Shown here: one piece after another, positions 29,087 through 35,798 of the stretch | Position numbering within the stretch: position 1 is the first letter of the stretch | How the letters are laid out: every line of letters begins with the position of its first letter | Source of the DNA: Thermoproteota archaeon | GTDB lineage: Archaea > Korarchaeota > Korarchaeia > Korarchaeales > Korarchaeaceae | Reading direction: 5' to 3' | DNA length: 64,000 bases | Assembly (NCBI GenBank): GCA_027491435.1 | Contig: JAOZFG010000017.1 | Span: 44,466 to 108,465, forward strand | Notes under the pieces: model-generated | Seen by the model: only the letters and a program-made list of their open reading frames with translations | Databases searched by the model: none | What the model was told of the DNA's origin: nothing | Position numbers and translations under genes: made by a program

Positions 29087-30617
29087 TTATACCAGCCTCT
29101 CCGGCCACCTTGGTCAGGAGCTTCTCAATCGGGGGCCTTCTGCCGACCAGCTCCGTTAGGACCTCAGCTATTATCTGGTAGTACATCTTGAATATCTCAT
29201 ATCTCTTCCTCATCAGTTCCTTTCTCCTCTTTCTATTTAGGTATATCCTCAGCTCCCTAGCACATATCCTTAAGCCTAGCTCTATTTCCCTAGCTACTTC
29301 AGGCACGTTAGCTATGAACTCCTTGCCCACCGTCTTAAAGGGAACTTTAGTGGATACTATGTGGACGAAGAAGGCTACAGGCTCCTCCTCAGGGCTCTTT
29401 AAACCGTAATTGGTCCAATCAATTTTCTTTATCACGTGATAAGACACGTCACTGGACACGTCGTAGAGCAGGGGTATCTTGTTTGCGTACCTGTAAAGCT
29501 GGATTTCTCCGGTTGGCTTAAGGGCCCCTCCATACGCTATGGCAACCTCCACTATGAAGGGATTGGCTTCGTAGACCGATGGGGGCCTCTGAACCGCCTT
29601 AACGAACTCAGGCAGGAGCTCCTTCTTTATCCCCTCCTCGAACAGCTTTTCCCCTAAAGGGGCCAAGACTGATGGGTCCGGTGGCAAGAACTTCTTGTAA
29701 CTTCTTAGAGCCCTAAACAAGGCTAATATCTCCTCTTTGGTTAGTTCTGATGGTTTCTTGTCCTCGGGTATTCCGGCGAGCTTGAGAACCTCTCTAGCGG
29801 TTTTCTCCCCTACTCTCTGAAAGTGTTTGGTCAAGAAGGACTTCATGTTCCTAGTATTGGTGATCTCTACCATCCTCTGCAATAACTCAAGGTCTACACC
29901 CTTAGGATGGAATAAAGACTCCTTTGGCCTCTTAGGCAGCTCTTCTGTGCTTTTAGGGAAGAAGTAAACGTTTCCATCTGGTTCTATGAACAGTATGTCC
30001 GCATAAGGGACTACTATAGCCGTCTGGTGTAGGTACTCCACGATCTTCCTCCTGGCCCTCCCGTAGTTCCCCTCAAAGTGGGACTCAACTATGGTAAAGG
30101 AATTCCTCGATATGCCTCTGAGGATTCTCTTCTGAAGGATTTTGGGTTCATTCCTCTTTATGTCAATCATCATGGTTATCTCATAGGCCGGCTCACCCTC
30201 CCTGGCTGAGGTTATCCTAAAAGGTTTGTTGGTAGTTATCTGTCCGTAAAGTAAAGCCATGGTACCTCCTAAACCGAAGGTCCCTCTGCTCTGCATGAGC
30301 CTGTACTTGGAGCTCACGAAGACCCTGCCGAAGGCCTTAGGTATGTCATCGGGCTTGAGCCCTATGCCATTGTCGGCGACCGTTATCTTGTACCAGGGAA
30401 GGCCCTCGGACAGCGGGCCCTCTCTAGACTCCTCCTCTACGGATATGAGTATCTTGGGAGGGACGCCCTTCATTTCAGCCGCGTCTAATGCGTTTTCCAC
30501 TAGCTCTCTGACTATTGTGTAGGTGGCCCTTACTGGATTGTCGAAGCCTGCCAGCGACTTGTTCCTGTAGAAGAAATCGGACGCGCTAATTTCCTCCAGT
30601 TCAACTTTGTCCGCCAT
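29043..30617 (-). CDS. top6B: DNA topoisomerase VI subunit B
   Basis: RELVENALDA, DNGIG, QSRGTFGLG, RYANKIPLLYD, STKVPFKTVGKE. Confidence 0.97.
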   Translation of the reverse strand: MADKVELEEISASDFFYRNKSLAGFDNPVRATYTIVRELVENALDAAEMKGVPPKILISVEEESREGPLSEGLPWYKITVADNGIGLKPDDIPKAFGRVFVSSKYRLMQSRGTFGLGGTMALLYGQITTNKPFRITSAREGEPAYEITMMIDIKRNEPKILQKRILRGISRNSFTIVESHFEGNYGRARRKIVEYLHQTAIVVPYADILFIEPDGNVYFFPKSTEELPKRPKESLFHPKGVDLELLQRMVEITNTRNMKSFLTKHFQRVGEKTAREVLKLAGIPEDKKPSELTKEEILALFRALRSYKKFLPPDPSVLAPLGEKLFEEGIKKELLPEFVKAVQRPPSVYEANPFIVEVAIAYGGALKPTGEIQLYRYANKIPLLYDVSSDVSYHVIKKIDWTNYGLKSPEEEPVAFFVHIVSTKVPFKTVGKEFIANVPEVAREIELGLRICARELRIYLNRKRRKELMRKRYEIFKMYYQIIAEVLTELVGRRPPIEKLLTKVAGEAGINDEGGSEEESSGAG

Positions 30618-30625
30618 AAGATCAC

Positions 30626-31219
30626 CTAGGACTCTTCAAGCTCTTTCTTCAGCTTTCTCCAATACATCTCCTCATAGCTCCTTCTACTCTCTATCTCGGA
30701 GATCTTCTTCTCCATCGCCCTGAAAGCGGTGGAATGCATTGATCCTTCTAACAGCGAGAATATGGCCTCCCTTGCCGGGAGGATGTCATATATCTTCCCT
30801 ATTATGGACACCGTGTGTCCATAAACTGATATGTGAGTGCCGGTCTTCTTCTCTATAAAAGTCCTAGACTTACCCTTCTCTCCAATTATTCTACCCCTCA
30901 TCCTCCTGAGGGCGTTCTTACTGCTGCCCACAAACCTCCTTATGTCGATGACCTCCAACACGTAGTCGTCCTCCAGTAACTTAATTGCTATCTCGGGGTT
31001 GAACCCCCTGCCTATAGCCCTCACCACAGACTCGAGCTTCTGGGGAAGCAGGGGGTCTTTGGGCATATCGTGGAACCTTATGGTGACCTCTCCCGTGCCA
31101 CTATCAACTACTATCTCAGCTCCAGTGAGCTCCTCCAGCATGCGCTTTGTCGAGCCTCCTTTGCCTATTAGCACACCAATCCTCTCTCTTGGAATTCTAA
31201 TTGATATTTCGTAAGGCAC
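30626..31219 (-). CDS. KH-domain rRNA processing protein (Dim2/Pno1-Krr1 type)
   Basis: RIGVLIGKGG, AIGRGFNPE.A, RGRIIGEKG, LLEGSMH. Confidence 0.93.
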   Translation of the reverse strand: MPYEISIRIPRERIGVLIGKGGSTKRMLEELTGAEIVVDSGTGEVTIRFHDMPKDPLLPQKLESVVRAIGRGFNPEIAIKLLEDDYVLEVIDIRRFVGSSKNALRRMRGRIIGEKGKSRTFIEKKTGTHISVYGHTVSIIGKIYDILPAREAIFSLLEGSMHSTAFRAMEKKISEIESRRSYEEMYWRKLKKELEES

Positions 31220-31230
31220 AGGGAATCCCC

Positions 31231-32019
31231 CTACCCGGATATCTCTTCTGCTAACTTGTAGGGATCAGGTACAGTTAACTTGAACCTTCTATAAAAGAAT
31301 TGAGTCACTCGTTCAAGGTCCCTGAGCAGCAAGGAGAAGGCCAGAGGATGAGTTATCACAACCGCTTGAGATACGTCTATTATCCAGTGACTGTCCTCCC
31401 AATACATTATGTTGTATTCACTCAGATCCCCGTGTACCAACTCAGCTTCTCGATAGGCCTTCCTTATGTCTTCTATTATGGAGTTCATGATGCTCTCAGG
31501 ATCGTCTAGGCTCTCTAAGTCTTTAAGCAGAGGGGCGGGGGTAGCGTCTTTGCCTATGAACTCCATAACCAGCACGTTTCCCGTAACATCTATGGGCTTG
31601 GGTACCTTTACCCCCGCCTCCCTAAGCCTCTTCAAGTTCCTAAACTCTTTTTTTGCCCACATTCTTATTATTTTATCTCTATCCTTTACAGGTATGAACC
31701 TATAGTCGCCAGCTAAGTAATCTACATATTTCTTGAAGTTAGCTGTGTAGACCCTGTAAACTTTGACCGCTACCTCCCCTTCAGGCCCCATCCCTGCCAG
31801 AACTAGCGCTTCTTTTCCCGCGCTTATGACCCAGGTTAGATCGTATAGGACGCCCTTATTGAAGAGTTTAAGTAGGGATCTCACGGTTCTCTGGTCAAAG
31901 GCTAGCTGCCTCACCTTGTAGTACTCCTCATCCTTTATCCGCTTGAACTTTTTCTCCTCCTTCCTGAATATCTCCTCGAGCTTGGCTTCTAGCTCCTCTA
32001 CATCTTCCAACAAGAACAC
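31231..32019 (-). CDS. rio1: RIO1 family serine kinase
   Basis: ISAGKEA, AVKVYR, WAKKEFRNL, LVHGDLSEYNI, IIDVSQAV. Confidence 0.95.
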   Translation of the reverse strand: MFLLEDVEELEAKLEEIFRKEEKKFKRIKDEEYYKVRQLAFDQRTVRSLLKLFNKGVLYDLTWVISAGKEALVLAGMGPEGEVAVKVYRVYTANFKKYVDYLAGDYRFIPVKDRDKIIRMWAKKEFRNLKRLREAGVKVPKPIDVTGNVLVMEFIGKDATPAPLLKDLESLDDPESIMNSIIEDIRKAYREAELVHGDLSEYNIMYWEDSHWIIDVSQAVVITHPLAFSLLLRDLERVTQFFYRRFKLTVPDPYKLAEEISG

Positions 32020-32022
32020 CCG

Positions 32023-32376
32023 TTAGAAGGCTTCCGTGTAAGTTCCCCACTCCTCGGGTATGTATCCCCTCTCCATTAACCAAGCGACCTGCTGCTGATT
32101 ATACCTGACCACTATGTCCCCCTTACTCTTGTTAAACGGCCATATCGAAACTAGCACTATATCCCCCCTCTTTATCCAGGATCTCCTGCCCCTCAACTTG
32201 CCCCTAACCCTACATATCCTAACTACGCCGTCAGAACATTCTACTCTAAAGTGCCCTTTCCCGAGGGGCTCTAATACACGGCCAAAAACCTCGAGCTCCT
32301 CATCCGCTGGTAAAAGCTCCTCCATCTCAGCGTCAAGGGACCTCTCAACATCTCCTCTCTTCTTCTTTTTAGGCAG
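32023..32376 (-). CDS. eif1a: Translation initiation factor aIF1A; probable CTG start at 32376 (ORF track starts at ATG 32325)
   Basis: GRV...LG.GHF.V.C.DG..R.CRVRGKLR...WIKRGD.VLV..W; upstream in-frame CTG-PKKKKRG with SD GGGGTGA. Confidence 0.93.
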   Translation of the reverse strand: MPKKKKRGDVERSLDAEMEELLPADEELEVFGRVLEPLGKGHFRVECSDGVVRICRVRGKLRGRRSWIKRGDIVLVSIWPFNKSKGDIVVRYNQQQVAWLMERGYIPEEWGTYTEAF

Positions 32377-32388
32377 TTAATCACCCCC

Positions 32389-32820
32389 CTATATCTTGGG
32401 TATTGGCGTCTCAGCTCCACAGGCAGTACACCTGAGCACCCAAGTTCTCCTGACCTTCACTATTACTGTGTCGGGCCTGCCGCAGTGTGGGCAGATTACG
32501 TAGGTTCTTATGAACTTCTGTATCCTGGCATCTACCAGTTGAGGGTCCAGCTTTCTGGACAGTATTAACTTCCTTCCGTCCTCTGTGAGGAAGTAAGGCG
32601 AACCCAGTTCCTTAGAAAGGTACCTAGCCAAAAGTTTAGGATCCCTGTTGAGGGCTGTAACCAGCTCCTTAAAGTTTACTATGTGCGTCTGCTTGCCTTC
32701 CCACCTGACTATGGGCCTGGGAGGGGTAAACCTCTCACCGCTCTCAATTATATCAGGGAGAGCCTCTTTGGCAGCCCTTAGCATCTCCAAGTATTCCTCT
32801 CTTGTGGACAATCTTTTCAC
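32389..32820 (-). CDS. eif2b: Translation initiation factor aIF2 beta
   Basis: ERF.PP, NF.E....LNRDP, YVICPHCGRPDT, CTACGA. Confidence 0.96.
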   Translation of the reverse strand: MKRLSTREEYLEMLRAAKEALPDIIESGERFTPPRPIVRWEGKQTHIVNFKELVTALNRDPKLLARYLSKELGSPYFLTEDGRKLILSRKLDPQLVDARIQKFIRTYVICPHCGRPDTVIVKVRRTWVLRCTACGAETPIPKI

Positions 32821-32823
32821 CTC

Positions 32824-33450
32824 CTAACCTATGTAATAGTATCTTCCGTCTTCCTCATATATTAACCCTAGTTCCCTCAGCCTAGATAGAGCGCCCGACA
32901 CCTTTATCCGCTCCTCCCCCATTAGGTCCGCTATTTCATCCTGAGACAACCCGTCCACCTCTCTAAGTAGCTTGAGGAGTTCTTCTTCCAAATTTTTTTC
33001 ACTTCTTACCGGGGTCAGACTGGAGAACCTCAAATCCCTCCTTATAACCTCCAGCTCTCTGAGGAGAACTAAGTTAGGATCCTTCACTTTAAGAACTATC
33101 AAAGGCGATAAGTAGGGCTTATCCTTCCAGCTTCGGATCTTTGCTATGACGTCTAGAATAGACCCCCTAGCGTAAAGCTCTCCGGTTTCCTCATCTACTA
33201 GCTTATCCACGCCGTCCTCCCAGGCCCTCAACTGGATGATCCCAGTGCCGTCGAACAGGTCCAGCTTGGCAAAAGATCTGTTTTCGTGAACCCAAGTTGA
33301 AATTACCATTCCCAGAACCCTAACCTTAACGGCGCTACCCCACTTGAACCTGAAGTATCTCACGTGATCAACTGAAATGCTCTCAAATTCTCCCTCCAGT
33401 ATCTCAGATATCCTGACTTTGTAGGCTGGCTCTGTAAGGCTCGACCCCAT
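32824..33450 (-). CDS. RPA32-like OB-fold protein with C-terminal winged helix
   Basis: PAYKVRISEI..G, KVRVLGMVI, L.DGTG.I.LRAW, DPN..LLRELE, L.ELGLIYE. Confidence 0.82.
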   Translation of the reverse strand: MGSSLTEPAYKVRISEILEGEFESISVDHVRYFRFKWGSAVKVRVLGMVISTWVHENRSFAKLDLFDGTGIIQLRAWEDGVDKLVDEETGELYARGSILDVIAKIRSWKDKPYLSPLIVLKVKDPNLVLLRELEVIRRDLRFSSLTPVRSEKNLEEELLKLLREVDGLSQDEIADLMGEERIKVSGALSRLRELGLIYEEDGRYYYIG

Positions 33451-33507
33451 GACCCTCCCATAATATGGGTAATCCTTAAATAAAGGGTGGGGGTCTGTAA
33501 GTCAGGC

Positions 33508-33618
33508 GGGCCCGTGGCTCAGACTGGATAGAGCGCCCGCCTTATATGGCGGCTCCCGCTACATAACCGCCAGAGGAGAAGCGGGAGGTCGGGGGTTCAA
33601 GTCCCCCCGGGCCCACCA
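33508..33618 (+). tRNA. tRNA-Ile(TAT) with 33-nt intron (about 33546-33578)
   Basis: Body nearly identical to tRNA-Ile(GAT); CCCGC-CT TAT [intron] AA-GCGGG; intron helix TGGCGG/CCGCCA and BHB-like CCTT/GAGG helix. Confidence 0.92.
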
Positions 33619-33833
33619 CCCCGTTTAAGCCTGGTAAACAATTCCCTGTTTATCAGGTACCAAACTAGAAGGGACATTGAAAGTATCAAGAAAGCTGAGA
33701 TGACTTTAATAGCTGCTTCCAAGAACCCCTTCCCAATCGAGAGGACAGAGACCTTTATAACTAGCATAGCAGCTATGGTGAGCGCCCAACCAGACAAGAT
33801 TATCCAAATGGCCAACAACAACCCTTTGTCCAT
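33597..33833 (-). CDS. Small 2-TM membrane protein, unknown function
   Basis: Two hydrophobic helices; starts 4 nt after stop of GT4 gene with SD GAGGTGA; stop overlaps tRNA 3' end. Confidence 0.65.
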   Translation of the reverse strand: MDKGLLLAIWIILSGWALTIAAMLVIKVSVLSIGKGFLEAAIKVISAFLILSMSLLVWYLINRELFTRLKRGGGPGGT

Positions 33834-33837
33834 TTAA

Positions 33838-34809
33838 TCACCTCGGCGTCATCAGGTAATACGTAGTAAGCGAAAGTAGGCTAGACAGGGCCGTTAACGC
33901 TATTATTTCCTTGACCACCCTCCTTTCGTCCTTGCCCCTGTGCGAAACCAAGACGGCTATTAGGGTCATCGGGGCCTCGGGGTCTTCGTTAACGTAAAGC
34001 ACCCCGTCCCTAACTACAACGGGCCTTTTCATCTCCCTCCTCTCCCTAAGCCCCTTTACACTGGCTATCACCACAAATCCGGAGACCATGAAGGGTATTA
34101 GGGCTATGAAGAAGAACATCTCCCTGTTGGACGTTGCCGCTATTGAGGCTATAGCTGAGCCTACAGAGAGCGAGAGCGTGTCCCCCCCAAAGGCATCAGC
34201 AGGGTATTTATTCTTCAGGAAGTAAGGGATAAGCGAAGATATTAGAAGCAAGGTCATCCACCTTGAGGAGGCGTCCATCACCGGGAGCAGCAGCATTAGG
34301 GAAGTTATCACAGAGCCTGGCATTAACCCGTTTAACGCGTCCATCATGTTTATGGCGTTGGCGAATACTGAGAACATAATTGGTAGGATTAACCAGTAGA
34401 CGTAATACAGTCTGGCCCTTCCGACTACGGGCAGCAGGGGCCTGGGGGTCAACACCCCCAAGGCTATCAGGGGGAGGGGGGTCACTAGGAGTAAGGCGGG
34501 CTTTGTTAGGGCCGACAGGTTTATTAGGTCATCTATCATGCCTATAACCGCCCCTAAGGAGGTAGCAACGGCCACGGCTAAGAACTTAGGATTCCCTGTG
34601 ATGCCGGATAGGACGATTAACGCTGACACGAAAGGTATTACCACGGCGGGCCCCACAGGCTCAGGAACCCACCTCTCCTCCCTCTTGTGATAGTCCCTAG
34701 ACAATCTTCCAGCCTTCTTCAGTCTATAGATGTACGACCTGAGAGCCCACTCCGTAAAGGCGGCCGTAACTATCAGAGAGAGTGGCACCAGCAGATCCTC
34801 AGCTGACAT
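33838..34809 (-). CDS. MraY/GPT-like polyprenyl-phosphate sugar-1-P transferase (AglH-like), paralogue 1
   Basis: D.HK...VPEP.G, GMIDDL.NL...KP, NAINMMDALNGL, YPADAFGGDT. Confidence 0.85.
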   Translation of the reverse strand: MSAEDLLVPLSLIVTAAFTEWALRSYIYRLKKAGRLSRDYHKREERWVPEPVGPAVVIPFVSALIVLSGITGNPKFLAVAVATSLGAVIGMIDDLINLSALTKPALLLVTPLPLIALGVLTPRPLLPVVGRARLYYVYWLILPIMFSVFANAINMMDALNGLMPGSVITSLMLLLPVMDASSRWMTLLLISSLIPYFLKNKYPADAFGGDTLSLSVGSAIASIAATSNREMFFFIALIPFMVSGFVVIASVKGLRERREMKRPVVVRDGVLYVNEDPEAPMTLIAVLVSHRGKDERRVVKEIIALTALSSLLSLTTYYLMTPR

Positions 34810-34862
34810 CGCCTTAAACTGATCGCTTAAATTAAAAATCGTTAGATCATGATTGAGATGAG

Positions 34863-35798
34863 ATGCCCTTGGAGAGCATTATCACGCTAATAGCTGTCGG
34901 TGTGGTTGCCTATTGGCTTCAGAAGCTGTGGATATCTTCCTCCTGGAGGGCTAATTTGGTATCAAAGGACCTTCATAAAGCGGGGGAAGTGAGAGCCGTT
35001 AGGATAGGGGCCTTACCTCACGCTATGGTTGCTGTAATCTCCCTGTGCTGGGCAGTCTGGGCGCTAGACGTCCCCTACGTCTTAATGGCTTCTTCATACT
35101 ACGCGCTATTAGGACTGGCGGATGACGTGATAGGCCTGAGGAATTTGGAGAAGATCATATACTCATCTTTCCCGCTAATAGCCGCCTATCACGTCTATAA
35201 ACCGTTCAAGCTTTGGTTCGCTCTCCCATATCCTTTGATGGCAATAATATCTGTGTTGTTCGTCGTGTACGTGGCCAACGCCGTCAACACGTTAGCCGGG
35301 TTTAACGGATTAGAGATGGGGAGTACCGCTATAATATCTGGCTTCTTAGCTTTAATCTCTTTAATAAAAAAGTACGAAAATGCTTTCTTTGTTTACTTAA
35401 TACTGTTTATTCTATCACTTATATTCCTTAAAGATAACTGGTACCCGGCGAAGGCCTTTCCCGGCAACGTGGGCACGTTTTTCTTTGGAGGAATTTTAGC
35501 CCTAGCTTCTTCCATCTACGGGCTTTACTGGGAAATGATTATTTTGACGTTGCCTCATGGGGTAGATTTCTTCCTAAAATTGATTAGTTGGAGGAGAACT
35601 GCCAAAAAAGTGCCTGCTAAGGTGAGGTCGGATGGTACCTTAGAACCCCCAGGAAACCTCTCTCTAGCTGCTATACTGATTAGAAAGGGGATAAATAAGG
35701 AGAAAAAGATAGTAGTAACCATACTAGCCGTTGAAGCACTTCTGGGGGTCGTGGCGCTCACCTACTCGCTTTTAACTTTATGTACATTCTCCAGGTGA
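34863..35798 (+). CDS. MraY/GPT-like transferase (AglH-like), paralogue 2
   Basis: KDLHK, GLADDVIGL, NAVNTLAGFNGLE.G, NWYPAKAFPGNVG. Confidence 0.85.
   Translation: MPLESIITLIAVGVVAYWLQKLWISSSWRANLVSKDLHKAGEVRAVRIGALPHAMVAVISLCWAVWALDVPYVLMASSYYALLGLADDVIGLRNLEKIIYSSFPLIAAYHVYKPFKLWFALPYPLMAIISVLFVVYVANAVNTLAGFNGLEMGSTAIISGFLALISLIKKYENAFFVYLILFILSLIFLKDNWYPAKAFPGNVGTFFFGGILALASSIYGLYWEMIILTLPHGVDFFLKLISWRRTAKKVPAKVRSDGTLEPPGNLSLAAILIRKGINKEKKIVVTILAVEALLGVVALTYSLLTLCTFSR

Follow-up and report, generated by a model that had tools for sequence, protein, structure and literature searches.

The gene for translation initiation factor aIF1A in a korarchaeal genome appears to begin with a CTG codon. 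On balance we favour a genuine CUG start at positions 32376-32374, which would give a full-length aIF1A of 117 residues and would be helped by a very strong Shine-Dalgarno (SD) sequence; the case is built on comparison with related sequences. The CUG would be a T-to-C derivative of the TTG start used by the rest of the genus, and the initiator Met-tRNA would be placed on it by an unusually long SD pairing (10 bp) at the optimal spacing of 4 nt. The 100-aa gene call from an internal ATG would be an artefact of gene finders that disallow CTG.

Genomic context of the aIF1A gene

The source genome (G000) is a Korarchaeia MAG from an uncultured archaeon of hot-spring type, and the whole stretch of 64 kb that was analysed is referred to below as the window. 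According to the ORF listing and translation it carries a co-oriented, operon-like row of five genes, for an OB-fold/HTH protein, aIF2 beta, aIF1A, RIO1 kinase and a KH-domain protein (Table 1), and so contains the archaeal gene row aIF2beta-aIF1A-RIO1-KH protein. The identity of aIF1A is clear from its match to the Pfam family eIF-1a (PF01176; 83.5 bits vs a curated cut-off of 30.2, E 8e-24, residues 29-91), and the genome has one copy. The GTG start of RIO1 sits 3 nt past the aIF1A stop (junction 32019-32025, minus strand). Adjacency is conserved, with aIF2beta, aIF1A and RIO all present at a cover of at least 80% in 46 of 56 distinct loci.

Table 1 Features of the aIF1A locus in the window
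Feature	Coordinates	Strand	Remarks
OB-fold/HTH protein	32824-33450	-	ORF listing and Pfam
aIF2 beta	32389-32820	-	GTG start; ORF listing and Pfam
Shine-Dalgarno sequence GGGGGGTGAT	32380-32389	-	10 nt; first G is part of the aIF2beta stop codon
In-frame TAA	32377-32379	-	5' bound of the aIF1A frame; translation
CTG, proposed aIF1A initiation codon	32374-32376	-	homologous to the TTG start of congeners; right after the in-frame TAA, 4 nt past GGTGA
N-terminal basic tail PKKKKRGDVERSLDAE	32326-32373	-	16 codons; conserved as protein in the genus
Internal ATG (Met18)	32323-32325	-	annotated and ORF-track start; internal residue conserved in all relatives
aIF1A, full CDS as proposed	32023-32376	-	117 codons and stop
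aIF1A, called ORF	start 32325	-	100 aa from the internal ATG; P0023, the genome's own gene call
RIO1 kinase	31231-32019	-	GTG start; ORF listing and Pfam
KH-domain protein	30626-31219	-	ORF listing and Pfam

The stop codon of aIF2beta, TAG (32391-32389), ends 12 nt ahead of the CTG. Translational coupling from aIF2beta to aIF1A is possible, and ribosomes that have just finished aIF2beta may assist initiation at the CUG. Since reinitiation in Haloferax drops by 40-60% once the gap reaches 13-14 nt (available part of PMC10666635), independent SD-led initiation is at least as likely as coupling.

In the window, aIF2beta and aIF1A lie in one frame, split by TAG, GGG GGT GAT, TAA (32377-32391, minus strand). 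The shared frame looks incidental, relatives having the two genes in different frames. Read-through or fusion with aIF2beta was rejected on the same grounds (frames compared by eye) and because both TAG and TAA stand between the genes in the window.

Anatomy of the start region

On the minus strand, the region reads TAG, GGG GGT GAT, TAA, CTG CCT AAA AAG AAG AAG AGA GGA GAT GTT GAG AGG TCC CTT GAC GCT GAG, ATG. The original prediction had the frame open for 17 codons upstream of the ORF-track ATG as far as the CTG, with an in-frame TAA as its upstream bound; translation bears out both, the TAA lying at 32379-32377. The 17 open codons, (L)PKKKKRGDVERSLDAE above MEELL, include no in-frame ATG, GTG or TTG. 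Between the upstream stop and the conserved N-terminus the frame accordingly offers no canonical start codon, as would be expected of a near-cognate start. RNA of the start region folds no better than shuffled sequences (z +1.26).

The CTG is followed by PKKKKRG, and the TTG of relatives by (M)PKKK or SKRK, so that a short basic tail precedes the OB fold in the window as in its relatives. A basic N-terminal motif of the M-P-K-K type is typical of a/eIF1A generally. We also considered a frameshift from the GTG within the SD (32384), which opens an overlapping frame of 49 aa, and rejected it. In every relative this GTG belongs to the SD motif, and the conserved M-P-K-K start of the protein would be lost if ribosomes slipped by -1 on the A-run.

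Start codons of aIF1A in Korarchaeia

Named relatives in the comparison were Korarchaeum, Methanodesulfokora and unclassified Thermoproteota MAGs. The searchable set held 40 genomes of the class, and the gene was found in 38 of them. Within the genus of the window a match was obtained in 19 of 20 other genomes, the remaining one being 63% complete.

Aligning the orthologues for a conserved near-cognate codon, as the original prediction had envisaged, showed that the CTG itself is not conserved. The codon aligned with it, right behind the SD, is TTG in 19/19 congeners and is followed by P/S/R-K-K..., and three more distinct metagenome sequences of the genus have TTG too. In the window, the first base of this conserved TTG start has thus changed from T to C. 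Gene callers begin relatives at the TTG (P0002, P0009 and others). CTG stands at the start in the window alone among the 38 gene-holding genomes of the class, and two metagenome contigs, L037 and L041, provide two further cases.

Outside the genus the start varies. TTG is used in two genomes of genus g5, one of g3, and g6; ATG in the Methanodesulfokora-like g5 and three genomes of g3; and GTG in one genome of g3 and g7. The start is ambiguous in g2 and g4. Members of g2 (L022, L089-L092; metagenome loci L038-L040, L047 and L055) have a TTG with a weak SD upstream and an SD-led ATG (MSKK...) downstream, separated by an Arg-rich stretch of ~24 codons (LPSRRRGKRKRTFRRRRRP), possibly a relic of an earlier start region or else a long basic extension. 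In g4, locus L023 of genome G023 offers two candidates: a TTG, adopted by the public call P0025 (136 aa) and yielding MVRRRGGKRRKRRGGGKK..., and a GTG with a stronger SD (-16.1) giving the usual (M)PKGKRG tail. The public call P0025 may be 19 residues too long.

Conservation of the N-terminal tail

The residues E-R-S-L-D-A-E in front of Met18 show little or no variation across 23 sequences of the genus, and the codons for them vary synonymously, with six codons used for Leu, two for Ser and two for Asp. Such a pattern marks the tail as coding sequence in the genus. The window has kept every conserved tail residue, though it sits on a long end branch (0.24). Conservation at the protein level upstream of the first canonical codon is thus found both within the genus and, as described below, between L037 and L041.

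An alternative is that the T-to-C change killed the start, and that a 100-residue aIF1A lacking the basic tail is now made from the ATG at 32325. We hold this to be unlikely, while granting it some weight. The internal ATG is present and conserved in every relative and is chosen by gene finders, the OB-fold domain (Pfam residues 29-91) would stay intact, and CUG is a poor start in E. coli, where its initiation reaches 1-2% of that of AUG (available part of bioRxiv 10.1101/063800; a bacterial figure, not an archaeal one). In eukaryotes, which archaea resemble in their initiation factors, CUG is the best near-cognate codon (available part of the review PMC5666671). The retention of all conserved tail residues on the long end branch argues against a lost start, as does the persistence of purifying selection on the tail of L037 and L041 in spite of their CTG. 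Moreover, the internal ATG has no properly spaced SD, the nearest SD-like sequence, GAGAGGT, ending 14 nt upstream, and inspection by eye found no TATA-like box at about -27 that could serve a leaderless transcript.

A second lineage with CTG

The metagenome contigs L037 and L041 belong to another korarchaeal clade, with 72% protein identity to the window, and read ...GTGTGAGGTGATGTCTC CTG CCG AAG AAG.... Here too, the frame ahead of the conserved internal Met is free of canonical start codons. An out-of-frame ATG in these contigs (GTGATGTCT...) was rejected as a start; it opens an ORF of 8 codons and has no counterpart in the window.

Comparison of the two contigs shows 39 differences over 354 nt, and their codon differences comprise 36 synonymous and 2 non-synonymous ones. 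Within the tail there are 3 synonymous and 0 non-synonymous differences, and over the 30 nt that cover the SD and CTG the contigs agree completely. The tail of L037 and L041 has been under purifying selection since the CTG arose, which is hard to explain unless translation begins at or before the CTG. Proteins of the L041 type occur on 3 contigs from several sources, and gene callers begin each of them at the internal ATG.

A maximum-likelihood tree of aIF2beta, aIF1A and RIO (46 rows, 514 columns; quick search with SH-aLRT support only) placed the window within the clade of its genus (99), and L037 and L041 in a clade of their own (100) inside a different clade with g2 and g4 (98). Given these separate positions, the CTG arose at least twice.

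Strength and spacing of the Shine-Dalgarno sequence

The assembly of the window genome contains no 16S gene, and the 16S 3' end was taken from three congeners instead (...GGATCACCTCCC). Ten consecutive pairs, one of them G-U, are possible between GGGGGGUGAU of the SD and the 16S tail ...AUCACCUCCC. The GGTGA core lies at 32385-32381 with a spacer of 4 nt to the CTG. The predicted duplex energy is -19.3 kcal/mol ahead of the CTG, compared with -8.4 kcal/mol ahead of the internal ATG, and the former is the strongest among all orthologues examined (others -4.6 to -16.3).

Two further points of the original prediction are upheld by these values: that a strong SD precedes the CTG by 4 nt, at the spacing usual for other genes here, 4 nt being the modal spacer for SD-led starts in the genome; and that the internal ATG has nothing comparable. 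Its central claim, a start at the CTG rather than at the called ATG, gains support from the comparison, through the genus-wide conservation of the tail as protein, the placement of the SD and the second CTG lineage under purifying selection.

In prokaryotes, non-AUG starts tend towards stronger SDs (available part of PMC5622118), and the exceptional SD of the window may compensate for the weak codon. Compensation of this kind is not general, as the SD of L037 and L041 (-13.0) is unexceptional and not stronger than the SDs of TTG orthologues.

Start codon usage across the genome

We counted codons lying 4 nt behind GGTGA throughout the genome, where a stop occurs no more than 6 codons upstream and the frame stays open for 100 codons or more downstream. 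This gave ATG 52, TTG 16, GTG 4 and CTG 2; the two CTG cases are aIF1A and a 'CTG ATG' in which the ATG is the evident start. With spacers of 4-6 nt and a stop just upstream, the counts were ATG 80, TTG 48 and GTG 11. TTG is an unusually frequent start in G000, making up about a third of SD-led starts and being commoner than GTG. It thus does not stand out as a 'poor start' here.

A baseline for CTG was obtained from the first 80 codons of 2835 open frames with an SD cut-off of -14 kcal/mol or stronger. Such an SD precedes 48 of 4355 CTG codons (1.1%), a share like that of CTC (1.07%), CTA (1.19%) and CTT (1.0%); for ATG and TTG the shares are 2.65% and 2.15%. CTG is no general start in the genome, aIF1A being the only case. 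Fourteen CTGs combine an SD of this strength with the lack of a canonical codon within 6 codons, and among them the one of aIF1A alone comes directly after a stop, and has the strongest SD. The arrangement of CTG and SD at aIF1A is more than chance.

The rate of start switching was gauged by comparing G012 (800 kb) with G000, which gave 503 reciprocal-best pairs, 130 of them with an SD in both genomes. As many as 74 of these 130 carried the flag 'no canonical codon' for at least one of the two genomes, in most cases through misplaced SD-like coding sequence and start-site shifts. The remaining 56 pairs, with a canonical start in each genome, were the only ones used, as a rough guide that is too noisy for a CTG-switch rate. 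In this noisy analysis 6 of 19 SD-led TTG starts in G012 were still TTG in G000, which indicates that switches between TTG and ATG are common.

The tRNA genes were also searched with a special initiator tRNA for CTG in mind. ARAGORN finds one tRNA-Leu(CAG) in G000, an ordinary one, and none of its 42 tRNAs, with introns allowed, has a CAU anticodon, tRNA-Ile2 and both the initiator and the elongator tRNA-Met being missing. The missing CAU tRNAs and the 16S gene are probably unassembled, or have unusual introns. The same search returned one odd call, 'tRNA-???(aagc)'. We infer that the CUG would be read by the initiator tRNA, with the strong SD offsetting the weak codon.

Authenticity of the cytosine

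The CTG would disappear if a base-calling or assembly error had turned the ordinary TTG start of the genus, with T as the true base, into CTG. The exact sequence with C is carried by one assembly, and all 19 congeners have TTG. The original prediction had itself reckoned with a canonical codon at this position in orthologues, coupled with reads exposing the C as an error, as an outcome that would overturn it; the part about the orthologues is indeed what we find, with TTG throughout the genus.

A search for sequencing runs, RNA or DNA, matching window positions 29500-35500 found none. One for DNA of the same species found nothing above 81% identity among 27 metagenome loci and 29 genome-contig loci (2 of these being bacterial chance matches). 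Sister proteins offer an indirect view. P0003, which is 95% identical to the window protein and lies on a contig of 5337 nt in a different assembly, is called as 100 aa from MEELL, and P0001 (87% identical) has its called start within the tail, at MERSLD.... As gene callers take the SD-led TTG in other relatives, the genomes of P0003 and P0001 probably have no upstream TTG. Judged by the behaviour of gene callers, not by DNA, these sister genomes probably lack a canonical upstream start altogether.

We regard an error as very improbable. A single-base consensus error at exactly this base is improbable a priori by our own estimate, the call of P0003 from the internal ATG in another assembly is as expected where TTG is lacking, and CTG recurs on two diverged contigs of an independent lineage, in a protein form known from 3 contigs of several sources. 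A real C, and with it a CUG start in the window, is what we infer.

Possible autoregulation

The original prediction went further and proposed a feedback loop acting on aIF1A. The weak start would be a selected sensor: abundant aIF1A (with aIF1) would lower initiation at its own CUG or UUG, and scarce aIF1A would raise it. Extended to the class, the aIF1A gene of Korarchaeia would have been kept on a weak UUG, and twice weakened to CUG, as a homeostatic stringency loop acting through the IF1/eIF1A homologue, which would help to reject near-cognate starts, and not through IF3 or eIF1. By analogy with known systems the sensor is conceivable; we think it quite improbable, and the class-wide version is to be seen with the same strong reserve.

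In rabbit reticulocyte lysate, added eIF1 and eIF1A lower CUG initiation (available part of PMC5666671), which speaks for such a loop by analogy. A further point is that CTG arose twice in the aIF1A gene among about 50 distinct korarchaeal sequences, and a switch from UUG to CUG was recorded for 1 of 2468 ancestral UUG starts in closely related prokaryote genomes (available part of PMC5622118). TTG was kept in 19/19 congeners vs 6 of 19 TTG starts kept between G012 and G000, for which we roughly estimate a chance p of 0.06-0.2.

Against the loop stands the distribution of the start codons themselves. A poor start conserved across orthologues is not what the alignment contains, the CTG being confined to the window, L037 and L041; TTG is an ordinary start in the organism, and other korarchaeal clades use ATG for aIF1A. 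The main fidelity factor, aIF1, has a normal ATG start, preceded by a TATA-like box. Non-AUG initiation in yeast is not increased by haploinsufficiency for eIF1A (available part of PMC5666671), and a search of the literature outside subscription journals found no report of such a loop for a/eIF1A.

Comparison with known systems

The infC gene of E. coli, encoding IF3, has a conserved AUU start for which autoregulation has been demonstrated. Non-canonical starts in Deinococcus deserti were reportedly described by Baudet and colleagues in 2010, and autoregulation of eIF1 through poor start context is said to have been described by Ivanov and colleagues in the same year.

For D. deserti, the available part of PMC4007540 (Table 2) gives a proven CTG start for 1 leadered gene with an N-terminal peptide. 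Like the CTG and ATC starts of that organism, the proposed start of aIF1A is leadered and SD-dependent, with a near-cognate codon replacing ATG, GTG or TTG in rare single cases per genome. Unlike them, it is archaeal, concerns an essential initiation factor and is proposed from sequence comparison. The AUU of infC is named in the available part of bioRxiv 10.1101/063800. The resemblance lies in an initiation factor gene that begins with a codon disfavoured by the initiation machinery; unlike the AUU of infC, the CTG of aIF1A is confined to particular lineages and derives from a TTG that is in common use as a start, and the bacterial homologue of aIF1A is IF1 rather than IF3. With eIF1, aIF1A shares the situation of a eukaryote-type fidelity factor with a suboptimal start of its own, and the archaeal factors (aIF1, aIF1A, aIF2) form a machinery of eukaryotic type. 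The eukaryotic case differs in involving eIF1 and Kozak context, and aIF1 in G000 starts with the usual ATG.

A review of start selection gives AUG, GUG and UUG as the only archaeal starts (PMC4705826). Our search of the literature outside subscription journals found no report of an archaeal CUG start or of an unusual aIF1A start.

In eukaryotes, the basic tail of eIF1A is involved in selecting the start codon. Should the CUG start prove real, current annotation truncates aIF1A by 17-18 residues, both in the window genome and in the L037/L041 lineage, and leaves out this basic tail. It would also provide a comparative case of CUG initiation on an SD-led archaeal mRNA, and, with an initiation factor gene in which CTG has arisen twice, it would make the idea of a start-codon-dependent feedback testable.
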